DNA of 64,000 bases from Candidatus Thiovulum imperiosus. GTDB taxonomy: Bacteria; Campylobacterota; Campylobacteria; Campylobacterales; Thiovulaceae. Shown piece by piece: positions 8,692 to 55,522 of the stretch. The notes below the pieces were generated by a model, which saw only the letters and a program-made list of their open reading frames with translations, did not search any database and had not been told where the DNA came from. The stretch lies in contig JAMJTW010000031.1 in assembly GCA_024281175.1 (NCBI GenBank), positions 20,100 to 84,099 on the forward strand, written 5' to 3'. The position numbers were made by a program, and so were the translations under genes. The stretch's first letter is position 1. Every line of letters begins with the position of its first letter.

Positions 8692-10203
8692 TTAGTAGTT
8701 GTAAGCTACTTTATAATTTGGGTCGTCCTCTTCATAAGTACAGAATGGACCAGCATTTTTTAAGATAGCTTTACAGTCGTTGGAAAGGTGTCGAATTCGG
8801 AGATTTTTTCCAGCTTCAGAATACTTTTTTGTAATTCCATCTATCGCTTCAACTCCAGAAATATCCATAACTTTTGCATTTTTGAAATCAAGAACTACCT
8901 CATCAGGGTCACTTTCCAATTGGAACTGCTCATAGAAAGAGGTAACAGAACCAAAAAAGAGTGGACCTTCAAATTCATAAATCTTTCTACCATCTTCAAC
9001 TCTGCTTCTGGAATAGACTCTTGCATGTTGCCAAGCAAAAACTAGAGCTGAAATTATGATACCTGTAATTACAGCAATTGCTAAATCAAAGAAAATTGTA
9101 ATGAGGGTTACAGCTACAAGGACAAAACGGTCACTATTTGGCATATACTTTATTCTATTTCCACTCTCCCACTCAAAAGTTCCAATCGAAACCATAAACA
9201 TAATTCCAACAAGAACTGCTACTGGAATTACGGCGATGAGGTCTGTTAAAACTATCACAAAAAGAATTAAAAGAACAGATGCAACAAGTGCCGAAAGTCG
9301 TCCCCAACCACCATTTGAGAAGTTGATAATAGATTGTCCAATCATTGCACAACCTGCCATTCCTCCAAAAGAGCCACAAGCCACATTTCCAACTCCTTGA
9401 GCCACACACTCCTGATTTCCACTACCTCGTTTTCCGCCCATTTCATCAAGAACTGAAAGGGTAAGAAGAGACTCAATTAGACCTACAAGAGCTACAAGAA
9501 CAGCATAAGGCAAAACCATAAGAAAGACATCTAAAGAGATTTCAAATTCTGGAATTGAGAAAGTTGGTAAAGAGCCTGAAATATCAGCAAGGTCTCCAAC
9601 TCTTTTTGTATCTAAGTCGAAAAGTAAAACTATTGCAGTAATTGTAACAATTGCAACTAATCCCGATGGAACTGCTTTTGTGATTTTTGGAAAGAACTCG
9701 ACGATTGCCATCGTAAGAAAAACTAAAGCATACATTACCCAATTTTCACCCTCAAAAAGTGGAAATTGTGCTAAAGCAATTACAATTGCAAGACCATTTA
9801 CAAATCCATACATTGCAGGTTGAGGAACAAGTCGAATGAGTTTTCCTAATTTCAGAACACCCACAAAGATTTGGAGAAGACCTGCTAAGATGGTGGTGAG
9901 AAGTATATATTGTAAAATCATCTCAGCATCAGCATCTGGAAAAAGCTCTTTCACTTCAACTCCAAGCCCAACAAGAACTACGGCAACAGCACCAGTCGCA
10001 CCTGAAATCATTCCCGCCTTTCCACCAATTAGAGCTGTAATGAGTCCTAAAATGAAAGCGGTGTAGAGTCCAACAAGTGGTGAAACTCCAGCTATAAATG
10101 AGAATGCAATCGCTTCTGGAACAAGTGCAATTGCAACAACAATTCCAGAAAGAATATCATTTTTTGCACTATGACCAATAAAAGTGTTTCTTATATTTAA
10201 CAA
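8692..10203 (-). CDS. SulP-family anion (sulfate/bicarbonate) permease with C-terminal STAS domain
   Basis: 503 aa with many TM helices. The C-terminal STAS-like block reads FEGPLFFGSV...LDFKNAKVMDISGVEAI. Confidence 0.9.
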   Translation of the reverse strand: MLNIRNTFIGHSAKNDILSGIVVAIALVPEAIAFSFIAGVSPLVGLYTAFILGLITALIGGKAGMISGATGAVAVVLVGLGVEVKELFPDADAEMILQYILLTTILAGLLQIFVGVLKLGKLIRLVPQPAMYGFVNGLAIVIALAQFPLFEGENWVMYALVFLTMAIVEFFPKITKAVPSGLVAIVTITAIVLLFDLDTKRVGDLADISGSLPTFSIPEFEISLDVFLMVLPYAVLVALVGLIESLLTLSVLDEMGGKRGSGNQECVAQGVGNVACGSFGGMAGCAMIGQSIINFSNGGWGRLSALVASVLLILFVIVLTDLIAVIPVAVLVGIMFMVSIGTFEWESGNRIKYMPNSDRFVLVAVTLITIFFDLAIAVITGIIISALVFAWQHARVYSRSRVEDGRKIYEFEGPLFFGSVTSFYEQFQLESDPDEVVLDFKNAKVMDISGVEAIDGITKKYSEAGKNLRIRHLSNDCKAILKNAGPFCTYEEDDPNYKVAYNY

Positions 10204-10305: not shown

Positions 10306-10472
10306 GGGGACTGACCAAATAGAGTATTTTTACATCTTAACAATTTATATGTCATTTCGAACCCTTTAGGGTGAGAAATCTTTTACATATTTGGGTAAAA
10401 GGATAAACTTCCAAGATTTCTCAATCACTTCGTTCATATCGAAATGACAAGAAAGCCTATTTGGTCACTCCC
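10306..10472. mobile_element. Full-length MITE-like (Correia-like) element, 167 bp
   Basis: Terminal inverted repeats GGGGACTGACCAAATAG and CTATTTGGTCACTCCC. Internal boxes GTCATTTCGA...GAGAAATCTT pair with AAGATTTCTC...TCGAAATGAC. Confidence 0.65.
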
Positions 10473-12211: not shown

Positions 12212-12925
12212 ATGAACCCTTACTTAAATGATATTATAGAAATTTCACAAATTGATAATGAGATAGCTGAATTTGAACCTAAAGTTGAAAGAATAAAGTA
12301 TAGTTATAACTCTATTCAAAGACAGAGAGATGAAATTCTTCAAGAGATTGAAAAAGTTGTTGATGATATTCGTGATGTAGATAATAAAATCGGTGTTCTT
12401 GAAAAAGATATTGAGAGAATTGGTCAAGAACAGAAAGAGTATGAGAAAAAATTAAATACTATTACAAAAACTAAAGAGTTGAATGCCTTAACTATGGAGA
12501 ATAATCTTCGAAAAGAGCAAATTCAATATGATAATAGTGAAGTTGATAGATACGGAAAAATAAGAGACAACCTCGACCAGAAACTTAAAGATAAGAAAAA
12601 TGAGTATGAAGAATTTAAAGAGAAACTCTCTTCTGAAGAAGAGAGAGTTAAAAAAAGTTTAGATTCTATTTCTGAAGCTAAAAATGTTGTTTTGAAAGAT
12701 AGAGACAAAAAGAGAGATTCAATGAATCCAAAAATCTACTCTTTCTATTCAAAAATTCGAAAATGGGCTGGAGAGAATGCAGTTGTTCCAGTTCGAGATG
12801 GTGCTTGTTATGGCTGTTTTATAAAATTAAATGACCAAACTTTTCTTGAGGTAATAAAAGGTGAAGAGATAATAACTTGTCCAAATTGCGGTAGAGTTAT
12901 CTATTTAGAGAGAGATGAGGAGTAA
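12212..12925 (+). CDS. Coiled-coil C4 zinc-ribbon protein (COG1579 type; resembles H. pylori HP0958/FlgZ)
   Basis: Long charged coiled coil followed by CYGC...CPNC. Lies immediately upstream of waaA, as HP0958 does with HP0957. Confidence 0.7.
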   Translation: MNPYLNDIIEISQIDNEIAEFEPKVERIKYSYNSIQRQRDEILQEIEKVVDDIRDVDNKIGVLEKDIERIGQEQKEYEKKLNTITKTKELNALTMENNLRKEQIQYDNSEVDRYGKIRDNLDQKLKDKKNEYEEFKEKLSSEEERVKKSLDSISEAKNVVLKDRDKKRDSMNPKIYSFYSKIRKWAGENAVVPVRDGACYGCFIKLNDQTFLEVIKGEEIITCPNCGRVIYLERDEE

Positions 12926-14061
12926 TGTTCTCCTCCACATATACAGTTTCTCTACTAACTCTACACTCTCTACTCTCTCCTATCATATTTGCAATATCTT
13001 TTAAAAAAAAGTATCGAAATTCAATTCCAGCGAGATTCTTTCTCTGGAAAAATAGAACAAATTTAGAGAATAGATATTGGTTTCACGGCTGTTCTTTGGG
13101 AGAGATAAATGCGATAAAGCCATTTTTGAAAAAGTTTCCAGAAGACACTCTGCTGACAACAACCACGGAAACAGGTTTCAATTCAGGAAAAAAGAGTGGA
13201 TTTGAGACAAGATATCTACCTTTTGAACATCTACTATCTTTCTGGAGAGGAAAACCGAAAAAACTTATAGTTTTGGAAGCTGAACTCTGGTATCTGCTTT
13301 TTAGAATTGGAAAGAGAAAAGGTGCAGAAACTATACTTTTGAGTGGTCGAATTTCTGAAAGAAGTTTTCCAAAATATATGAAGTGGAGATGGTTTTATAA
13401 AAGAATTTTTCAGAATATAGATGTGATTTATGCTCAGAGTGAAATTGATAAGAGTAGATTTGAGAAATTGGGAGCTGGAAAGGTGAAGGTTTTAGGAAAT
13501 ATAAAACTTTTGAAATCGAAAAGTTCTCAAAATTTAGATATTCCAAAAGATAGAAAAGTTTTTGTTGGTGCTTCAACCCATAAAGGAGATGAAGAGACAA
13601 TTTTAAATGCTTATCCAACTTCTGAAAGAGTACTTATAGTTCCAAGACATAAAGAGAGGTTTGATGAGGTTTGGAAAATTGTCTTGGAATTTGGAGAGAA
13701 AAGAGGAGTCTCTACTTCAAGATATTCAGAAAGTCATAGCTTTCAAGCAGATGTAGTTTTAGTAGATACTATTGGAATGCTTATCGATATTTACGCAAAA
13801 AGTGATGTTGTAATTTTAGGAGGCGGTTTTTATGATGGCATTGGTGGACACAATCCAGTTGAACCAGCCTCTTTTCAAAATATAGTTATTTCTGGAAAAT
13901 ACGCTTTTAACCAACTTGAACTCTTTCCCTATATTGATAATTTAAAAATTGTAGAAAAGATAGAGTTAAAAGAAGTTCTACAAAATATAAACTCCTTACA
14001 TATCGCAAAAGTCTCTCAAGATATAGATTTCCAGAAAATAGAAGATACTCTCAAAAAATAG
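12925..14061 (+). CDS. waaA: 3-deoxy-D-manno-octulosonic acid (Kdo) transferase
   Basis: YWFHGCSLGEINA motif, the C-terminal GT-B half, and length fit WaaA/KdtA. Confidence 0.9.
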   Translation: MFSSTYTVSLLTLHSLLSPIIFAISFKKKYRNSIPARFFLWKNRTNLENRYWFHGCSLGEINAIKPFLKKFPEDTLLTTTTETGFNSGKKSGFETRYLPFEHLLSFWRGKPKKLIVLEAELWYLLFRIGKRKGAETILLSGRISERSFPKYMKWRWFYKRIFQNIDVIYAQSEIDKSRFEKLGAGKVKVLGNIKLLKSKSSQNLDIPKDRKVFVGASTHKGDEETILNAYPTSERVLIVPRHKERFDEVWKIVLEFGEKRGVSTSRYSESHSFQADVVLVDTIGMLIDIYAKSDVVILGGGFYDGIGGHNPVEPASFQNIVISGKYAFNQLELFPYIDNLKIVEKIELKEVLQNINSLHIAKVSQDIDFQKIEDTLKK

Positions 14062-14161
14062 GATTTACTAAATAGAGTATTTTTACACTTTACATATGTC
14101 ATTTCGAACCCCTTTTGGGTGAGAAATCTTGGGAGTGGCAGAAACCTATTTGGTCAGTTCC
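14061..14161. mobile_element. Short MITE-like element, 101 bp
   Basis: GGATTTACTAAATAG ... GTCATTTCGAACCCCTTTTGGGTGAGAAATCTT ... CTATTTGGTCAGTTCC. It starts at the waaA stop codon. Confidence 0.6.
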
Positions 14162-14170
14162 GCATGAAAC

Positions 14171-15220
14171 TTACTTTTTTAGACTCTCTTCCAAATTGTG
14201 ATGAGTAACTTTGATAGTCTCCAAAATCTCCTCTATCTCCTTTTCAGAACCACCATTTGTAAGAAGAGTATAAAGTTTCTCAATTTCTGCTCGAAGTGGT
14301 CTTGGAAAGTTTTTAGCTCCATAATCCAACATATTCAAAGCAAGATTTGCTGAAGAGTGAGAAATTTGTCTCTGAATTCCCTGAAGTGTTACGGTTGTAA
14401 AAGGCGAATTCATATAGAAAATTGTCTCATTTATCACATGTCTTAAGTAGTTTCTAAATCTTACAATTTCGTTTTCATCAAGATAGTTTAGTGCTACAAG
14501 AAAATCTTTTTTGTAAATCTTAGAAATCTTGCGAAGTTGATTGAAAGATTGAATTGAGATTTCTCTTCGTTGCTCTTTGAGTTCATCAAAAACGATTTGA
14601 CTTGCTGTTTTTCGGACATTTGCAATATGAAGATTTTGAAACATTGTTGCAAAAATTCCATTCACTTGCTGTTTTGTTGCCCCAAAGTTTTCCAGAGTCT
14701 CTTCAATTTTCTCTCTCAAATCTCTATACTCTAAATCGAAAAGTTTTCTCTCTTCGTAAATCGATTTCACTTCTGTAATCATCTCTCCAATTTGAAGAGG
14801 CGAAATCGTTTCAGAAATATAGAAACCGTTTTTCCGAATTGCTGGAAGAACTTCTTTTGTTATCCACTTTTTAAAGTCTTTTGCATTCTCTTTTTTACTA
14901 CTGAAACTTGCTGAGTAAATCCCACTCTCATTTACAAGAGTTAGCTTACCATTTCTGTCAAAAGATACACCTCCATTTGGGAGGTGTATTTTCTTATCAA
15001 TCTTTAAAATATCCTCTTTTTCGATGTGTTTAAGCATTTTATTTGTGTTTGACAAAACTCTTTTTGTTCTGGTATCAATCTTTTCATATCCTAAAATTGA
15101 AGCCACATCTTTTGCAACAAACCACAAATCTTCTGTTTTTAAATCAAGTAGAGTTCTTATCTCTTTTCCCTCAAAAAATCGAAAGTTTTCTGGCATTTTT
15201 TCTAAAAGTTTTAAATTCAT
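14171..15220 (-). CDS. BRO-N domain protein with RhuM-like C-terminal region (phage antirepressor-like)
   Basis: N-terminal LWFVAKDVASILGY and WITKEVLPAIRKNG are BRO-N hallmarks. C-terminal FQNLHIANVRKTASQIV...ALNYLDENEI parallels the RhuM-family core. Confidence 0.75.
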   Translation of the reverse strand: MNLKLLEKMPENFRFFEGKEIRTLLDLKTEDLWFVAKDVASILGYEKIDTRTKRVLSNTNKMLKHIEKEDILKIDKKIHLPNGGVSFDRNGKLTLVNESGIYSASFSSKKENAKDFKKWITKEVLPAIRKNGFYISETISPLQIGEMITEVKSIYEERKLFDLEYRDLREKIEETLENFGATKQQVNGIFATMFQNLHIANVRKTASQIVFDELKEQRREISIQSFNQLRKISKIYKKDFLVALNYLDENEIVRFRNYLRHVINETIFYMNSPFTTVTLQGIQRQISHSSANLALNMLDYGAKNFPRPLRAEIEKLYTLLTNGGSEKEIEEILETIKVTHHNLEESLKK

Positions 15221-15251
15221 AAATTATCTTTTTTGGAGATTTTACAGGAAA

Positions 15252-15347
15252 GTTTTGCAATCCCTATAAGGGAAACGGAACTATAGCACTATGTTGGAAG
15301 ACCTAAAAGAATTTCAATGTTTGCAATCCCTATAAGGGAAACGGAAC
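15252..15347 (-). CRISPR. Minimal CRISPR-like array: two 30-bp repeats and one 36-bp spacer, no cas genes in the window
   Basis: 15252-15281 and 15318-15347 match at 28/30 positions (the 28 bp at 15254-15281 and 15320-15347 are identical). The minus-strand repeat is GTTCCGTTTCCCTTATAGGGATTGCAAAAC, with an internal TCCCT-TAT-AGGGA hairpin and an ATTGCAAAAC tail. The spacer is 15282-15317. Confidence 0.45.
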
Positions 15348-15348
15348 C

Positions 15349-15555
15349 CTAACTGTTCCCATTTATTGGGTGTAATTGTAGTGAAAGAAAAATAAAATTT
15401 AGCTTAAGCGAAAATTGACCTCGATTTTTCGGGCATAAATTTTTTGCTTTATAAGAGATTTTTATGGCATAAGTTTGAAGCCATTTTTTATTACTTCTGA
15501 AACTTAAACGGTGATTTTCTGAAACTAATTTCAGGAAATTTTCTCTTGTTTTCAT
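15349..15555 (-). CDS. Small hypothetical ORF (68 aa); alternatively the AT-rich leader of the mini-array
   Basis: ATG preceded by AGGAGA. I recognise no family. It ends 1 nt before the first repeat on the minus strand. Confidence 0.3.
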   Translation of the reverse strand: MKTRENFLKLVSENHRLSFRSNKKWLQTYAIKISYKAKNLCPKNRGQFSLKLNFIFLSLQLHPINGNS

Positions 15556-15583
15556 CTTTCTCTCCTATCTATATAAGGCAAAA

Positions 15584-15743
15584 CACTCTGAGGGAGGTTC
15601 TTCCAGAACTGACCGAAGAGTCTTCTTTTTAGACTCTGCGACTATGCTCAGAGAGGAAATCCTGCTCTATTTAGCCAGTTCCTCTTTTTAGACTTTTCGC
15701 GTTCGCTAAGAGAGGAAATCCTTACTCTATTTGGTAAGTTCCC
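15584..15743. repeat. Composite of repeat-family modules including a roughly 58-bp tandem duplication
   Basis: CACTCTGAGGGAGG..GACCGAAGAGTCT-TCTTTTT-AGACTCT hairpin at 15617-15637, then two tandem units each ending AGAGAGGAAATCCT.CTCTATTT.G..AGTTCC. Confidence 0.6.
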
Positions 15744-15774
15744 AAGTTTTTACATAAAATTATTAAAACTTTAC

Positions 15775-15807: not shown

Positions 15808-17088
15808 ATGGACGCTTTAAAGATTTACGGAGGTAAAAAGCTCTCTGGAAAAGTAAAAATTTCTGGAGCAAAAAACTCTGCTCTACCAATCATTGCTTCT
15901 ACAATATTGGCAAAAAACAGGGTCAAAATTGAGAATATGCCTAATGTTGTAGATATAAAAACTCTACTAAAACTTTTGGGAAGACTTGGTGCAAACTACG
16001 AACTTTCTGGAAATAGCTTAGAGGTAGATAGCTCAAAAGTAAATAGTACGGTTGCAAATTATGATATAGTAAAAACGATGAGAGCTTCTATTTTAGTTTT
16101 AGGTCCTCTGCTAACAAGATTTGGACATTGTGAGGTATCTTTGCCTGGAGGTTGTGCAATTGGGGCTAGACCTGTTGATTTACATCTTAAAGCTCTACAA
16201 AAGATGGGTGCTGAAATTACTATTGATGAGGGATATATTAAAGCGTCTACACCAAAAGATGGGTTACAAGGAGCAGATATCCATTTTGAAAAGAAGAGTG
16301 TAACAGGTACTGAAAATATTGTCATGGCAGCAGCTCTTGCTCATGGAGAGACAAATATCTCAAATTGTGCTTTAGAACCTGAAGTTGTCCAGATATGCGA
16401 AATTTTAAGAGATGCTGGAGTTGAGATAGAGGGAATTGGAACTGAACAAATCAGAGTAGTTGGAACTGGTGGAAAACTTCTCCAATTTCAAGATATAAAA
16501 GTTATTCCAGATAGAATTGAAGCTGGAACTTATCTTTGTGCTGGAGCAATTACCAAAAGTACAGTAAAAGTTTCAGATGTAGAACCAAAACATATTCAAG
16601 CAACTATAAATAAATTAGAAGAGATGAACTTCAAATTAGAAATTGGAAAAGATTTTGTGAGAATTGCTCCTCCAGAAGATGGAAAAATAGGTAGCGTAGA
16701 TATTGTTACAGCTGAATTTCCAAAGTTTCCAACTGATATGCAAGCTCAATTTGTAGCTTTGACAACTCAAGCATGTAGTGAAAGTATCATTGAAGAGAGG
16801 CTTTTTGAAAACAGGTTTATGCATGTTAGCGAACTTCAGAGACTTGGTGCTGGAATAGAGATTGAGAAAAACCAAGTTAAAGTTTCTGGAAGTAGTGAAC
16901 TTATTGGTGCTGATGTTATGGCAACAGATTTAAGAGCCTCTTCTGCTCTTGTTTTAGCTGGACTTGTAGCAAAAGGGGAAACTACAATACATCGTATTTA
17001 CCACCTAGATAGAGGGTATGAGAGTTTAGAGGAGAAACTTCGAAATCTTGGAGCAAAAGTAGAAAGAGTAAAGGTAGATATTCTTTGA
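15808..17088 (+). CDS. murA: UDP-N-acetylglucosamine 1-carboxyvinyltransferase
   Basis: Full-length MurA pattern, including the active-site loop [15 protein letters not shown]. Confidence 0.95.
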
Positions 17089-18138: not shown

Positions 18139-18257
18139 GGGAGGTGACTAAATAGGCTTCTGTCATTTCGATATGAGCGTAGCAATTGAGAAATCTTGGA
18201 AATTTATCATTTTAATCGAAACTCTTAAAACATAAAAACACTCTATTTGGTCACTCC
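18139..18257. mobile_element. MITE-like element, 119 bp
   Basis: GGGAGGTGACTAAATAG ... GTCATTTCGATATGAGCGTAGCAATTGAGAAATCTTGG ... CTATTTGGTCACTCC. Confidence 0.6.
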
Positions 18258-18402: not shown

Positions 18403-19155
18403 ATGAGCGAGAATTATAACACATCTTTGTTTGAAATGGTAGAGGGTGAACTTAGAATTTCTCATCTTGTAATTGCTAGTATAATAAATAGCCAACCAGC
18501 TTCAGTTAGCAAACTAATTACGAATTATAGTGAAGAGTTAAGCAATTTAGGAAAGATAGCATCAAAAAAATCTAAGAAAAAAGTATATTTTCTTAATAGA
18601 AAACAGTTGAATTTAATGTTTTACATTATAAAAATGCCATCTGCTAACTTATTTATATTAGCCTCAAAATTCAATGACTCTTTTAAAGCGATAGAGGAAT
18701 TTTCCAAAGAAGATAATGTCGATACAAGAAAAGGTTTTGTTTATGTTGCTGAGTTTGATAATGGGAATTTGAAAGTTGGACATTCAATAAATCCTACTCA
18801 GAGATTAAGAAATTTAGAGACTCAATCTGGCAATAATATTATTAAATACTCTCTTTTTGAATTTAAAACCAAAAATGAAAGTTTAAAAGCTGAAACAGAC
18901 CTTTTGCGAAACTTGAAAGAGTGGCGAATAATTGGAGAATATATTGGTAGAAGCTATGAATATGTAGTTGAAACTGCGAAGGAAATTTTAAAGGCTTTCA
19001 ACTATACAGAGAAGATTTTTCTCTTTTACAACTACTCAACTTTACGAACATATTTTCAAAAGCAAAATTGGAAACCAGATATTTTACAAGAGATACTTAG
19101 AAGTAGCCAAAGTAGAGTGCCCACTCTGAGTATAGTTACTAAAAAAGCTATTTAG
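18403..19155 (+). CDS. Rha-like N-terminal DNA-binding region fused to a T5orf172 (GIY-YIG-like) domain
   Basis: GFVYVAEFDNGNLKVGHSINPTQRLRNLE matches the T5orf172 core pattern. The N-terminus (RISHLVIASIINSQPASVSKLI) looks like a phage Rha/HTH region. Confidence 0.7.
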   Translation: MSENYNTSLFEMVEGELRISHLVIASIINSQPASVSKLITNYSEELSNLGKIASKKSKKKVYFLNRKQLNLMFYIIKMPSANLFILASKFNDSFKAIEEFSKEDNVDTRKGFVYVAEFDNGNLKVGHSINPTQRLRNLETQSGNNIIKYSLFEFKTKNESLKAETDLLRNLKEWRIIGEYIGRSYEYVVETAKEILKAFNYTEKIFLFYNYSTLRTYFQKQNWKPDILQEILRSSQSRVPTLSIVTKKAI

Positions 19156-21664: not shown

Positions 21665-22108
21665 TTATAATTTCTGTTCTAACTTTTCAAGAAACTTAAT
21701 AGTCTCTTTTCTATTTATAAAATCATCTTTTGAGTGTTGAATAACTCTTTGAAGTAGTTCTCTATCTTCCACTTTTCTAAAAAGCTCTAAAACTTCAGTC
21801 TCAAATTTTGGTAGGTGTTGAGAGATAATAGACCAGACCTCATCAGAGTCAATACCGAAATATTCGTGTACAACAAGATTACGAAAATTGACAATCATTC
21901 GATAGTTAGAGGAGAGAAGTTCACCATTAATTAGGTGTTTTGTAGCTTCACCAATTATCTGCAACTCTCTCATTGTTGCATCAAAACTTTTCTCATCATA
22001 ATAGAAATCTTCACCATCACTAAATTCAGATGTGTATCTTTTGATTTTATCAATTGAGATAAGTATATCGACGATAAAAAACTCTAAAACTCTTTTAGAC
22101 ATAGACAA
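21665..22108 (-). CDS. hepT: HEPN (DUF86) toxin HepT of a type VII toxin-antitoxin pair
   Basis: RX4H motif FRNLVVHEY. Overlaps the upstream MNT gene by 14 nt. Confidence 0.85.
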   Translation of the reverse strand: MSMSKRVLEFFIVDILISIDKIKRYTSEFSDGEDFYYDEKSFDATMRELQIIGEATKHLINGELLSSNYRMIVNFRNLVVHEYFGIDSDEVWSIISQHLPKFETEVLELFRKVEDRELLQRVIQHSKDDFINRKETIKFLEKLEQKL

Positions 22109-22385
22109 GCTCCTTTGAAATCTCCTCTCTTATAAAACCCCTTAATGAGGATAGATAACCAATATCTACGCTTATTCCAAAATAGCTTTCCAGAAATATT
22201 CTAAGCTTTTCACGATTTTCAAAATCTTTTTGGTTTGACTCTATCACGATATCAATATCACTGTTTTCATTAGCTTCATTTCGTGCATAGCTTCCAAAAA
22301 GTCCAATTTTTTCAACTCCAAATTTCTCTTTAAATTCGTTTTTGTGAGACTTTAGGAAAGAGATGATTTCAGTTTTTGAGGTCAT
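22095..22385 (-). CDS. mntA: Minimal nucleotidyltransferase antitoxin MntA
   Basis: GLFGSYARNE...SDIDIVIE nucleotidyltransferase motif. 96 aa. Confidence 0.85.
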   Translation of the reverse strand: MTSKTEIISFLKSHKNEFKEKFGVEKIGLFGSYARNEANENSDIDIVIESNQKDFENREKLRIFLESYFGISVDIGYLSSLRGFIREEISKELVYV

Positions 22386-22483
22386 GGAAAACCTTTTTTA
22401 TGGATTTTAGCGAAATGGGAAAAATGGTTGAGGTTGTTTAAGAGAAAATAAGGTCTCTTCTTTATTTCCCCTTTTTTGGGAAA

Positions 22484-22513
22484 CTAAAGGAGTGTGAAAT
22501 CTCTTTTAGACAT
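22484..22513 (-). pseudogene. Nine-codon remnant of a second HEPN gene
   Basis: ATGTCTAAAAGA overlaps the stop of MNT copy 2 exactly as at the intact junction (22095-22108), but reads MSKRDFTLL-stop and then runs into the duplicated MNT upstream region. Confidence 0.5.
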
Positions 22514-22793
22514 AAATTATCTCATTTTGAATTGATTGTTTGATTTGTTCTCGAACTGTTTTGAAAAGACCTAAGTCTATATTTGGATAGAGGTTATCTT
22601 CTAAAAAATATTTAAAATCATAATACAAATTAAAGTCTGACGGCATTTCAACAACTAAATCAATATCACTGTTTTCAGTTGCTTCATCTCGTGCATAGCT
22701 TCCAAAAAGTCCAATTTTTTGAACTCCAAATCTCTCTCTAAATTCGTTTTTATGAGACTTTAGGAAAGTTATGATTTCAGTTTTTGTGGTCAT
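22506..22793 (-). CDS. Orphan MntA-like nucleotidyltransferase (tandem paralog)
   Basis: GLFGSYARDE...SDIDLVVE motif. The first 48 aa or so and about 55 nt of 5' flank nearly match copy 1. The C-terminal half is diverged. Confidence 0.85.
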   Translation of the reverse strand: MTTKTEIITFLKSHKNEFRERFGVQKIGLFGSYARDEATENSDIDLVVEMPSDFNLYYDFKYFLEDNLYPNIDLGLFKTVREQIKQSIQNEIIYV

Positions 22794-23853: not shown

Positions 23854-25528
23854 AAGAAAATACGCTTCAATGTATGGACCAACTGTTGGAGATAGATTTA
23901 GATTAGCTGATACAGAACTTTTTGCTTGTGTTGAGAAGGATTACACAATCTATGGAGAGGAGAGCAAATTTGGTGGTGGAAAAACTATCCGAGATGGAAT
24001 GAGCCAATCTCCAACAGCAGGAAGTGAAGTTTGCGACCTCATCATCACAAATGCAGTTATTATCGACTACACTGGAATTGTAAAAGCTGATATTGGAATT
24101 AAAGATGGTAAAATTGTAGCTATTGGAAAGAGTGGAAACCCAAATAATACAGATGGAATTACAGAGGATTTAGAGATTGGAGCAAATACAGAAATTCTCT
24201 CAGCTGAAGGAAAAATTATTACAGCTGGTGGAATAGATGCTCATATCCATTTTATCTCTCCAGGGCAAATTGATGAAGCTCTACACAGTGGTGTAACAAC
24301 AATGATTGGTGGAGGAACTGGTCCAAATACAGGAACAAATGCAACGACTTGTACTCCAGGGGAGTTTAATATCTCAAAGATGATAGAGTCTGTAAACGAC
24401 CTTCCCCTAAACTTTGGATTTATGGGAAAAGGGAACTCTAGCAACTACGAAACTTTAGCTTCTCAAATTCGAGCTGGAGCGATGGGATTAAAACTTCATG
24501 AAGATTGGGGTACAACTCCAAAAGCGATAGATACTTGCCTAAAAGTTGCTGATGATTTTGATGTTCAAGTTGCAATTCACACAGATACTTTAAATGAGTC
24601 TGGATTTGTTGATAATACTGTAAATGCTTTTAAGGGCAGAACAATCCACACTTTTCACTCTGAAGGTGCAGGAGGTGGTCACGCTCCAGATATTATGAAA
24701 GTTGCTGGACTTGAAAATATTCTCCCATCATCTACAAATCCAACTCTACCATACACAAAAAATACAATAGAAGAGCATCTCGATATGCTTATGGTTTGTC
24801 ACCATTTAAGTCCAAAAATTCCCGAGGATGTCAGTTTTGCAGAGAGCCGAATTCGAGGAAAAACTATCGGTGCTGAAGATGTTCTTCACGATATTGGAGC
24901 TATCTCAATGACAAGTAGCGACTCTCAAGCAATGGGTAGAGTTGGTGAAGTTATTACAAGAACTTGGCAAGTTGCCCACTCTATGAAAGTTCAGAGAGGC
25001 TCTTTAGAGGGAGATAGAGAGTATAACGATAACAATAGAATTAAGAGATATATCGCTAAATATACGATAAATCCTGCTATCGCTTCTGGAATAGATGAGT
25101 ATGTTGGAAGCGTAGAAGTTGGAAAAATAGCTGACTTAGTTCTCTGGAATAGAGCTTTTTTTGGTGTGAAACCTGAAATTATTATCAAAGGTGGATTTAT
25201 CGTAACAGCTATGATGGGAGACTCTAATGCATCTATTCCAACTCCTGAACCAAATTTTTATAGAGATATGTTTGGAAGTTTAGGAAAAGCTGGAGCTAAA
25301 ACAAGTGCTATTTTTGTGGCAAAAGAGAGTCGAGAAGTAGATACAGACAAAGAGGTTTTGGTTGTGAAAAATACGAGAAATATCTCAAAAAAGGATATGA
25401 AACTAAACAGTTTTATTGGAGATATTAGAGTTAATCCTGAAACTTATGATGTTACAGTAGATGGTGAATTGATTGAGTCAAATTATATGACGGAACTCCC
25501 AATGGCTAGGAGATATTTCTTGTTTTAG
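23837..25528 (+). CDS. ureB: Urease alpha subunit (UreB in Helicobacter nomenclature)
   Basis: [28 protein letters not shown] and [13 protein letters not shown] active-site blocks. Overlaps ureA by 17 nt. Confidence 0.95.
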
Positions 25529-29772: not shown

Positions 29773-30465
29773 TCAGAGTGGTGTTTCCAATTTCCACTTT
29801 AGTTGGTGGTAAGTTCCACCAAATTCCATTCCAAACTCTTTTCCCGATGAGGTAAGTTTCCAAATTCCATCCTGCTTTTCTTGGAAGCCCTTTCTTTCCA
29901 GAAGCAAGTTCGCTTCTCTTCCTGAAATTCCGTGTAGCTTTCCAAGTTCTGTTGGGAGGAAGTAGGTTTGGGAAAAGTCGAGTTGGAAGAGAGAAGAGAT
30001 ACTTTTTTCACCTAAAAGCTTTTGGAGAAGTAGTAAGTGAAAAGGTTTTGTCTCTTCGAGAAATTCCACGAGCTTTTTAGCTTCTTCATTTTGGGAAAGG
30101 AGTTCTGAAAAGTTTGGAAGTTCTGAAATGGAGTAACTTCCTGTTTTTCTGATAGAGGGTAATACCTCTTCCATAATCCACTCTTCAATTTTTTCCGCTT
30201 CTGGCATTTCAGATTTTATAATAAGTCGCCAAACATCAGGTTCTAAAATTAACTTTGTTTGTGGATGTAATTTAAAGGTCACTGTATTAGTGACCTTATC
30301 AAATTCTTGCCATTCTACGGGTTTTTTGCAATGAACTTTTATCGCATTTGCAGTTTTTTTATACTCTAAAAGCTCTGCTACATCTTTTGCAACAAACCAA
30401 TCTTTGCCATCTATTAACAGAATTCTGACTTGAAAACTGTTAAAATTTTTAGTTATTAGGTTCAT
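29773..30465 (-). CDS. BRO-N / KilAC-type phage antirepressor-like protein
   Basis: DWFVAKDVAELLEY and WIMEEVLPSIRKTG (BRO-N). The C-terminal LPTELGKLHGISGREANLLLERKGF...WKLTSSG resembles KilAC. Confidence 0.75.
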   Translation of the reverse strand: MNLITKNFNSFQVRILLIDGKDWFVAKDVAELLEYKKTANAIKVHCKKPVEWQEFDKVTNTVTFKLHPQTKLILEPDVWRLIIKSEMPEAEKIEEWIMEEVLPSIRKTGSYSISELPNFSELLSQNEEAKKLVEFLEETKPFHLLLLQKLLGEKSISSLFQLDFSQTYFLPTELGKLHGISGREANLLLERKGFQEKQDGIWKLTSSGKEFGMEFGGTYHQLKWKLETPL

Positions 30466-30759: not shown

Positions 30760-31054
30760 ACGAATATGAAGAGTGTTTTTAAGATTTCTCACATTCGTTC
30801 GAAATGACAAAAGGGGGAAAACCCACTCTGAACGAATGTGAAGAGTCCAAAAGAAAGACTCTTCTTTCGTAAAACTTCCTTAGAGTGGAGAAACATGTCA
30901 TTTCGAACCCTTTAGGGTGAGAAATCCTTTTCAAGTTTTTAAGATTTCTCACATTCGTTCGAAATGACAAAAACGGGCGGAAAGAGAGAAAGACCAGCCC
31001 CAAAAGGGGGCTGGAGTTAGTTGAAGATTTCTCGTATTCGCTCGAAATGACAAG
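30760..31054. repeat. Cluster of four GTCATTTCGA/GAGAAATC repeat units with a 38-bp perfect duplication
   Basis: GTTTTTAAGATTTCTCACATTCGTTCGAAATGACAAAA occurs at 30775-30812 and 30935-30972. GAGTC hairpin at 30840-30864. Related units at 30896-30926 and 31023-31054. Confidence 0.7.
30994..31014 (-). terminator. GC-rich hairpin downstream of the caspase-like gene
   Basis: CCAGCCCC-AAAAG-GGGGCTGG, followed on the minus strand by a T-rich tract (TCTTTCTCTCTTTCC...GTTTTTG). Confidence 0.5.
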
Positions 31055-55348: not shown

Positions 55349-55522
55349 GGAGTGACTAAATAGGCTTCTGCCTCTCTTGTCATTTAGTGAAACTTCGGAT
55401 ATGAACGAAGTGATTTAGAAATCTTGGAAACTTATAGTTTTACTAAAAGATTTCTCACCCGAAAGGGTTCGAAATGACATATAGGTTGTTAAAGCATAAA
55501 AATACTCTATTTAGTCAGTTTC
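55349..55522. mobile_element. Full-length MITE-like element, 174 bp, inverted relative to the 10306 copy
   Basis: GGAGTGACTAAATAG ... GTCATTTAGTGAAACTTCGGATATGAACGAAGTGATTTAGAAATCTTGG ... AAGATTTCTCACCCGAAAGGGTTCGAAATGAC ... CTATTTAGTCAGTTTC. Confidence 0.65.

Follow-up and report, generated by a model that had tools for sequence, protein, structure and literature searches.

A CRISPR mini-array distant from cas genes in Candidatus Thiovulum imperiosus and a type III-A system that shares its repeat

The 64,000-nucleotide stretch of Candidatus Thiovulum imperiosus DNA analysed here (hereafter the window) contains, in a small islet between housekeeping genes, two repeats and one spacer that almost certainly constitute a CRISPR array. 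Comparison with other contigs from the same series of samples established, as far as sequence can, its identity as CRISPR and that of its leader, the presence of a complete type III-A (Csm) module in the same species, and the duplication of the module to which the array belongs. The reading that we favour, by a modest measure, is that this is a mini-array of the genome's own type III-A system, distant from the cas genes, which arose by duplication or recombination of a module and would be expressed and used through Cas6 and Csm proteins acting in trans.

The array and a repeat-matched type III-A locus

The repeats are read on the minus strand, which is that of both flanking ORFs, as the first-pass annotation of this DNA had proposed. 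The components of the islet are as follows (positions in the window).

14062-14165, no strand: dispersed-repeat elements lying between the stop codons of kdtA and BRO, at the islet's opposite edge
14171-15220, minus strand: BRO-N/RhuM gene, 349 aa, immediately downstream of the array and co-oriented with it
15221-15251, minus strand: conserved array trailer TTTCCTGTAAAATCTCCAAAAAAGATAATTT, 31 nt, reaching the BRO start codon
15252-15281, minus strand: leader-distal (terminal) CRISPR repeat, perfect 30-nt consensus GTTCCGTTTCCCTTATAGGGATTGCAAAAC
15282-15318, minus strand: single spacer, 37 nt, ATTGAAATTCTTTTAGGTCTTCCAACATAGTGCTATA
15319-15347, minus strand: leader-proximal CRISPR repeat, 29 nt, GTTCCGTTTCCCTTATAGGGATTGCAAAC, one A short in the 3′ handle region
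15348-15577, minus strand: repeat-proximal half of the CRISPR leader, including an apparently spurious 68-aa ORF at 15349-15555
15575-15745, no strand: two units, each of about 60 nt, of a species-specific dispersed repeat (families D2/D3), in place of the distal leader

A 28-nt perfect direct repeat (TTTGCAATCCCTATAAGGGAAACGGAAC) occurs at 15254-15281 and again at 15320-15347, with 66 nt from start to start, and a search of the 64-kb window allowing up to three mismatches recovered these two copies alone (expectation from 100 shuffles, 0.00). On the minus strand, and judged against the consensus of the cas-linked arrays described below, the terminal repeat is perfect and has the same sequence as the repeats at 9735, 9804, 9938, 20727, 20796 and 20866 of a contig bearing a csm operon (L012). 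The leader-proximal repeat ends in GCAAAC, and the other nine repeat copies seen in the species (9/9) end in GCAAAAC. The initial description of two 30-bp repeats, identical at 28/30 positions and separated by a 36-bp spacer, is equivalent to this division into repeats of 29 and 30 nt and a spacer of 37 nt. These lengths agree with the geometry of CRISPR arrays (repeats of about 23-50 nt, spacers of similar length), and the type I/III geometry that had been recognised is in keeping with the type III-A system found. The internal 5-bp stem described at the same time (TCCCT/AGGGA) does exist, but folds weakly (-6.2 kcal/mol, z = -1.4), and over the entire array region the predicted fold is no more stable than that of shuffled sequence (z = +0.56). 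The spacer is unique within the window and across all fetched loci. Since two repeats and one spacer are the minimum possible, the window array taken alone is weak evidence for CRISPR.

The islet is situated between kdtA (12925-14061) and murA (15808-17088), next to urease accessory genes; ureEFG, a CT398-like gene and kdtA flank it on one side, murA and queA on the other. No integrase or structural gene was found in its 1.7 kb. A tblastn search of the window with all proteins of the csm locus matched only BRO paralogues and, in a PADLOC scan of 59 ORFs, no cas family was present among the matches listed (25 of 31 families), which bears out the earlier statement that these 64 kb are without a cas gene.

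The identical 30-mer flanks a csm operon on both sides (L012/L013), with four repeats on one side and at least four on the other. Because this repeat forms arrays flanking a complete type III-A module, we regard that of the window as a genuine CRISPR repeat. A search for the repeat and for cas operons in the genome and its relatives had been put forward as the check on this feature, and it returned both the identical 30-mer and a csm operon with cas6. The term 'orphan' therefore describes the array in so far as it lies far from cas genes, but a repeat-matched cas locus exists in the same species.

In order, the csm locus comprises a homologue of the 68-aa ORF, the four-repeat array, the 31-nt trailer, a BRO-N/RhuM gene (P0003), a truncated Bro-N gene, the csm operon and a second leader and array. 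The upstream array holds four copies of the repeat and unique spacers of 39, 37 and 37 nt; downstream, the second leader is followed by at least four repeats, with spacers of 39, 40 and 45 nt. The csm-linked spacers, 37-45 nt in length, are unrelated to each other and to that of the window. The type III-A system is seen here with seven spacers in all.

Proteins of the csm operon were assigned with NCBIfam equivalogs and PADLOC. The operon encodes a Cas10/Csm1 (TIGR02578, 1e-97; PADLOC Cas10a, 1.4e-62) with GGDD at residue 429, judged to be HD-less because the TIGR02578 match covers only profile positions 217-735; Csm2 (TIGR01870, 1e-06, just under the cut-off); Csm3 (TIGR02582, 1e-54); Csm4 and Csm5 (TIGR01903, 1.5e-19, and TIGR01899, 2.6e-10); Cas6 (TIGR01877, 9e-14, slightly under the cut-off); a CARF-HEPN effector (PADLOC, 6.5e-66); and further Csx20 (1.5e-43) and a WYL regulator. 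On these assignments the locus is a complete type III-A interference and signalling module. Neither cas1 nor cas2 was found in the stretches examined on each side of the operon or in the window.

Several lines of evidence bear on whether the two loci belong to the same organism. Eighteen contigs of JGI metagenomes 3300049385-3300049408 encode a BRO protein identical to that of the window, and every examined contig among these that spans the array carries the same two repeats and an identical array. Over 21 kb, one such locus (L002) and the window share 99.99% identity. The csm locus (contig _023) and the window locus (contig _013) co-occur in sample 3300049403. Moreover, a 34-nt dispersed element, GATTTCTCACCCTAAAGGGTTCGAAATGACATAT, present in four copies in the window (0 expected), is also found in the csm contigs, in those carrying a third BRO paralogue (P0002) and in those carrying an orphan cas6, and is absent from Thiovulum sp. 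ES, three other relatives and phage contigs. In tetranucleotide usage the csm, P0002 and orphan-cas6 contigs correlate with the window at 0.96-0.98 (0.976 in the csm contig comparison), and Thiovulum sp. ES, other relatives and phage contigs at 0.82-0.94. We therefore assign the window and csm loci to one species and very probably to one genome, within which they would be physically linked. The population is essentially clonal, its only polymorphisms being in the paralogous part of the BRO gene; none of the examined contigs is a variant without the islet or with extra spacers, and the arrays are unchanged across samples, with no spacer turnover.

The 20-mer core of the repeat gave a single chance match, in a coding region of an Oscillospiraceae MAG, when one genome from each of 185,579 species was searched, and 0 matches in IMG/VR. 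In the JGI metagenome collection the 20-mer gave 0 matches and a 19-mer five single chance matches. Rfam CRISPR-DR models did not match 15200-15600 even at E <= 10. Since only chance matches were obtained, the repeat is missing from public collections outside the sample series, and its sequence is, on these searches, specific to this lineage. A relative (GCA_030152305.1, JASKOM010000004.1; L035 7147-10750, GC 27.5%) has a cluster of a reduced Cas10 (664 aa), a 298-aa protein and Cas6, in which no Csm2-5 genes were called and within 10 kb of which no array was found; this may be what is left of a type III system, in degenerate or minimal form.

Leader, trailer and copies of the module

The window leader shares 95% identity (223-230 nt) with the sequence that immediately precedes each of the two csm-linked arrays, and 94% with a fourth copy on a P0002 contig (L007). 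A palindrome, GGAAC-N7-GTTCC, extends across the leader-repeat junction. Among the four copies the 68-aa ORF has 17 variable sites, which fall 7/6/4 on codon positions 1/2/3 and amount to 12 nonsynonymous and 5 synonymous changes. One copy is without the stop codon, so that reading runs 12 codons into the repeat, and another has a 1-nt insertion that shifts the frame; the start, AGGAG-N7-ATG, is retained in every copy. The ORF has no Pfam match and, among 1.84 billion representative proteins, only itself and one marginal match (8e-4) were found. Judged by these features it is an artefact of gene calling on a CRISPR leader. The suggestion that 15348-15555 is a leader and not a gene was therefore well founded, given the leader homology, the substitution pattern, the lost stop, the frameshift and the lack of homologues. 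The same stretch had been called AT-rich; with a GC content of 0.31-0.32 against 0.34 for the window, it does not exceed its surroundings in A+T. A second 68-aa ORF, in L031, proved to have no relation to the leader.

About 230 nt of distal leader, common to the other three copies, is missing from the window copy. We regard the latter as distally truncated because dispersed-repeat units stand where the distal leader would be. The conservation of the leader (95%) is no proof of selection, because the adjacent 3′ part of the BRO gene is equally conserved (94-95%).

The trailer TTTCCTGTAAAATCTCCAAAAAAGATAATTT is also found after the last repeat of the csm-upstream array (L012 9968-10000) and after a half (truncated) repeat before the third BRO paralogue, P0002 (L007 5957-6000). 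The gene that follows it in the window had been called BRO-N/RhuM-like, and rightly so: its product matches Pfam Bro-N (2.7e-19) and RhuM (5.3e-09), as well as the PADLOC defence candidate PDC-S05 (3.9e-11). Paralogues of 81% (P0002) and 74% (P0003) identity lie behind the same trailer in the same sample series; the nearest named homologue, from Thiovulum sp. ES, is 54% identical. The gene is a mosaic, its 3′ two-thirds having 94-95% DNA identity to both P0003 and P0002, and its 5′ third being closest to P0002 (96%) and resembling the truncated bro197 (82%). Leader, array, trailer and BRO gene are thus homologous between loci and the spacers are unrelated. Because the trailer and the BRO gene are duplicated too, the window feature is a cas-distant paralogue of a leader-array-trailer-BRO module.

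The P0002 locus (L007/L031) contains two relics. One is the half repeat and trailer directly ahead of the BRO start; the other is a full leader of about 450 nt followed by one solitary repeat (GTTCCGTCTCCC...) at L007 7190-7676 (about 16911-17402 of L031, minus strand), which lies 42 nt upstream of an operon of HTH_3 and Bro-N/HTH genes. The repeats of this genome therefore form a graded series of four, at least four, two, one and half a repeat. About 6 kb from these relics, the same contig carries an orphan paralogue of cas6 (P0136; L031 10001-10690; JGI 3300049416 Ga0499509_007), whose product has 82% identity to the csm-linked Cas6 and whose gene is directly downstream of a Bro-N/HTH gene. 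It is found on at least 23 contigs (L031-L034 among them), and has neither adjacent repeats nor other cas genes in its surroundings.

Some further observations concern this locus. In L007 the leader with its solitary repeat has a DDE transposase and Mu-like portal and F genes nearby. The defence island around P0002 shows a strain-level swap between L032 (15869-19838) and L031 (15406-18586), the former carrying KilA-N, patatin and a SMODS/DncV-like cyclase (CBASS-like), the latter the Bro-N/HTH operon, the leader with its solitary repeat, and P0002. Separately, P0010 could be placed on no contig.

The dispersed element of the window is intergenic, species-specific and about 80-100 nt long. Its core is a palindrome, CACCC-N3-GGGT, after which comes ...ATAAAAATACTCTATTTGGTCAGTCCC, and in appearance it resembles REP or MITE elements. 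Copies border both of the window's small islets (BRO and T5orf172) and substitute for the distal CRISPR leader.

10347-10380 (minus), 30893-30926 (minus), 55449-55482 (plus), 60666-60699 (plus): 34-mer copies of the dispersed element, about 0 expected
10307, 14144, 15665, 15725, 18241, 27178, 35603, 45918, 55505 and others: related 18-mer CTCTATTTGGTCAGTTCC, 11 copies against 0.17 expected

The second of these islets is a single gene at 18403-19155 (plus strand), between queA and a thioredoxin-reductase-like gene and preceded by the dispersed repeat at 18241; its 250-aa product has a weak Rha-like N-terminus (under the cut-off) and a T5orf172/MUG113 (GIY-YIG-like) domain. Another Bro-N gene (29776-30465, minus strand; 230 aa), beside the dispersed-element copy at 30893-30926, shares 32-37% identity with the N-terminal domain encoded by the array-linked BRO genes. 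Within the urease cluster, two MNT-like nucleotidyltransferase genes and a HepT-like HEPN toxin gene (21668-22793, minus strand) are inserted, with ureD and its neighbour on one side and ureAB on the other; their Pfam assignments come from the identical locus L002. The only Rfam match in the window at the gathering threshold is the 5′ ureB sRNA (23989-24278, minus strand; 97.7 bits), antisense in ureB, which may reflect conservation of the ureB coding sequence and not an antisense RNA conserved outside Helicobacter. A 33-nt tandem repeat of 11.4 copies with 89% matches (63032-63407) lies in the ORF at 62859-63767 and gives its protein an 11-residue period. Among the 59 ORFs scanned, PADLOC matched MADS mad3 (3e-44), mad8 and mad2, AriA (PARIS), two members of PDC-S09 (1.7e-30), and also AbiLi, GajA-like and LmuB-like models; these may be further defence genes, or generic matches to ATPases and methylases.

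Spacer target, activity and alternative explanations

The sequence that the spacer would recognise is given below.

Target sequence for the window mini-array spacer, as on the transcribed target: TATAGCACTATGTTGGAAGACCTAAAAGAATTTCAAT

Neither the window nor any fetched locus, the csm locus included, contains a self-match of at least 16 nt. Against phage records the spacer gave chance matches only (E >= 0.5), against plasmid records none, and no exact 24-mer of this spacer or of two csm-linked spacers was found in IMG/VR. However, spacer positions 1-21 (ATTGAAATTCTTTTAGGTCTT) exactly match one IMG/VR contig, a fragment of a T4-like phage of about 34% GC with gp5, gp53, baseplate, tail-tube and gp32 genes, and two further contigs of the same phage (ENA, Logan) are identical at the match. 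The match lies inside an ORF for a 774-aa virion protein with a lysozyme domain, and a crRNA from this array would be antisense to its mRNA. Such an orientation is a requirement of type III (RNA) targeting. The remaining 16 nt of the spacer align only with a gap, of 9 nt in frame (by hand) or 12 nt (by aligner). The reverse complement of the spacer has one open reading frame, and at the match the phage peptide reads HMLDKKQKDLKEFQ where the spacer encodes STMLE---DLKEFQ; DLKEFQ is found only in a 94%-identical homologue of the 774-aa protein, whose DNA equals that of L028 in that stretch. The matched stretch of the protein is not conserved in homologues of 39-63% identity, and searches of phage, plasmid and IMG/VR data yielded no full protospacer. 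By our own rough estimate, 0.03-0.3 chance 21-mer matches would be expected in a collection of that size; for this reason the match is suggestive and no proof. It points to a related Thiovulum phage as a possible source of the spacer.

The reading that we favour would run as follows. A module of leader, array, 31-nt trailer and BRO-N/RhuM gene, of which a parent-type copy stands directly upstream of the csm operon, would have been copied by duplication or recombination. The array would be transcribed on the minus strand from the retained proximal leader, and its pre-crRNA cut within the repeats by a Cas6 acting in trans, either the csm-linked protein or the 82%-identical orphan. A single crRNA, with 8 nt of repeat as its tag and about 37 nt of spacer, would then be loaded into the Csm complex, and pairing with a complementary phage transcript, possibly that of the T4-like phage, would stimulate the GGDD cyclase of the HD-less Cas10 to produce a signal for the CARF-HEPN RNase.

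Whether the window array makes a usable crRNA today we regard, from its sequence features, as evenly balanced. In favour are the perfect consensus of the terminal repeat, the intact proximal leader and trailer, the two candidate Cas6 proteins, and an effector module that looks complete. Against it, the one crRNA would take its 5′ tag from the altered repeat, and the window copy has no distal leader. The arrays are tiny and do not vary between samples, the stretches examined beside the csm operon hold no cas1 or cas2, and the repeat hairpin is weak. Scans of the leaders for sigma-70 consensus promoters were at or below shuffle expectation and located no promoter: the window has 3 promoter-like sites against 4.5 expected, the sole site on the array strand being inside the spacer, and the counts for L012 are 1 and 0, with none on the array strand.

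A serious alternative, although we think it somewhat improbable, is that the duplicated module is inert, a decaying pseudo-array no longer transcribed, processed or used, and still present only because it was duplicated recently. Since the same genome also contains relics of the module in more advanced decay, the window copy may be a step on a path of decay that runs from four repeats through two and one to half a repeat. Dispersed repeats stand in place of its distal leader, its leader-proximal repeat is mutated in the handle, its leader is no more alike between copies than is the neighbouring gene, and the spacers do not change between samples. Mini-arrays near type III loci have, moreover, mostly been judged degraded (Shmakov et al. 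2023, bioRxiv 10.1101/2023.03.03.530964). Decay of this kind is, however, hard to see in the core of the repeat, where 28/28 positions are intact along with the whole proximal leader and the trailer, and both the Cas6 hairpin and the presumed cleavage site are upstream of the 1-nt deletion. Type III complexes are also tolerant of considerable variation.

Three of the four leader copies read directly into a Bro-N gene, these being all of the copies with a known downstream gene, and two do so through the identical 31-nt trailer; the orphan cas6, too, is next to a Bro-N gene. It is conceivable, but in our view unlikely, that this fusion of leader and array to Bro-N is functional and not accidental. 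Array and BRO gene might form one transcript, in which case cleavage of the terminal repeat by Cas6 would make the 5′ end of the BRO mRNA and couple expression of an accessory defence or antirepressor gene to transcription and processing of the array; alternatively, BRO cassettes might spread by recombination at CRISPR repeats. No repeats were found at the more distant BRO-N/RhuM loci examined, namely that of Thiovulum sp. ES (L011), L016 and L017, and homologues in distant relatives occupy other defence-island contexts (MNT/HEPN, ZorA-like) without CRISPR.

The first-pass annotation had offered three options, of which a remnant and a trans-acting array are both plausible, whereas nothing was found in support of a decoy or regulator. 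It is very unlikely that the array yields a crRNA-like RNA of the CreTA/crlRNA, scaRNA or Racr kind, which would guide Csm to a partly complementary host transcript or titrate Cas6 or Csm. As in regulatory mini-arrays, one repeat of the pair is atypical; the array lies in the 5′ region of the BRO-N/RhuM gene, and RNAs of this kind are documented for other CRISPR types. The array, however, lies neither within nor beside a cas operon but between kdtA and murA, its housekeeping flanks include no recognisable phage or plasmid, and its spacer has no match of 16 nt or more in the window or in the fetched csm, BRO and cas6 loci; a large survey, moreover, found no regulatory targets for type III mini-arrays (Shmakov et al. 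2023). A non-CRISPR origin, as operator- or iteron-like repeats that control BRO or as a dispersed family, with the 68-aa ORF possibly a real regulator gene, could draw on the position of the repeats directly upstream of the BRO start codon, on the start of the ORF (AGGAG-N7-ATG) kept in all copies and on a genome rich in dispersed repeats, but can practically be dismissed given that the same repeat forms regular arrays with unrelated spacers beside csm and cas6, and that the ORF shows 12 nonsynonymous changes to 5 synonymous, a lost stop, a frameshift and no homologue.

Significance and relation to known systems

Array finders usually discard two-repeat arrays or give them the lowest level of evidence. 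What was a two-repeat curiosity is now a securely identified CRISPR array with a named partner system, and its leader, annotated as a 68-aa protein, is a worked example of a gene-caller artefact. The comparison indicates that a type III array and an adjacent gene can be copied as one module to new places in a chromosome. In the Thiovulum-like giant sulfur bacteria it documents a signalling type III-A system with few spacers, several relics and an orphan cas6, and it brings up a T4-like phage as a possible target. The recurrent joining of array to BRO gene is the only part that could open new biology.

Type III-A (Csm) systems with cyclic-oligoadenylate signalling combine a Cas10 bearing GGDD with a CARF-HEPN effector of the Csm6/Csx1 type. 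The partner locus resembles them in its Cas10 GGDD, Csm2-5, Cas6 and CARF-HEPN protein; it differs in that its Cas10 is HD-less, no cas1/cas2 are adjacent, the arrays are very short, and BRO-N, Csx20 and WYL genes accompany them. CRISPRs have been reported in all Thiovulum genomes compared (PMC9938260).

Residence on a virus defines both virus-borne mini-arrays (Medvedeva et al. 2019, PMC6858448) and the solitary repeats that act as RNA anti-CRISPRs (Racr; Camara-Wilpert et al. 2023, PMC10651486). The window array has housekeeping flanks, and its repeat was not found in IMG/VR. It shares with virus-borne mini-arrays a leader, few spacers, the lack of cas genes and a dependence on Cas proteins of the host, and its spacer may target a virus; in contrast to them it sits in an islet without a viral genome, where the only phage-like gene is BRO-N/RhuM. 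Like Racr, it places a repeat away from cas genes, and the copy in L007 is a true solitary repeat with a full leader. The window array, however, has two repeats and a spacer, is chromosomal, and presents no evidence of anti-CRISPR function.

Mini-arrays that flank type III loci have been surveyed and judged to be for the most part probably degraded, with no regulatory targets (Shmakov et al. 2023). That of the window is likewise a two-repeat, type III array with no detectable regulatory target, but it is distant from cas genes, on another contig (kdtA/murA), and retains near-perfect repeats and a recognisable leader.

Bacteria commonly carry arrays that lie far from cas genes and are compatible with Cas systems in trans (Bernheim et al. 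2019, NAR, PMC7145637). Like these isolated chromosomal arrays, that of the window has no cas neighbours, has a repeat identical to that of a cas-linked array, and presumably relies on Cas6 and an effector in trans; unlike them, it is reduced to two repeats and one spacer, with a truncated leader and an altered repeat, and was copied together with a downstream gene. Cas-distant arrays are thus a known and ordinary kind, and it is the fusion of array to Bro-N that stands out here.
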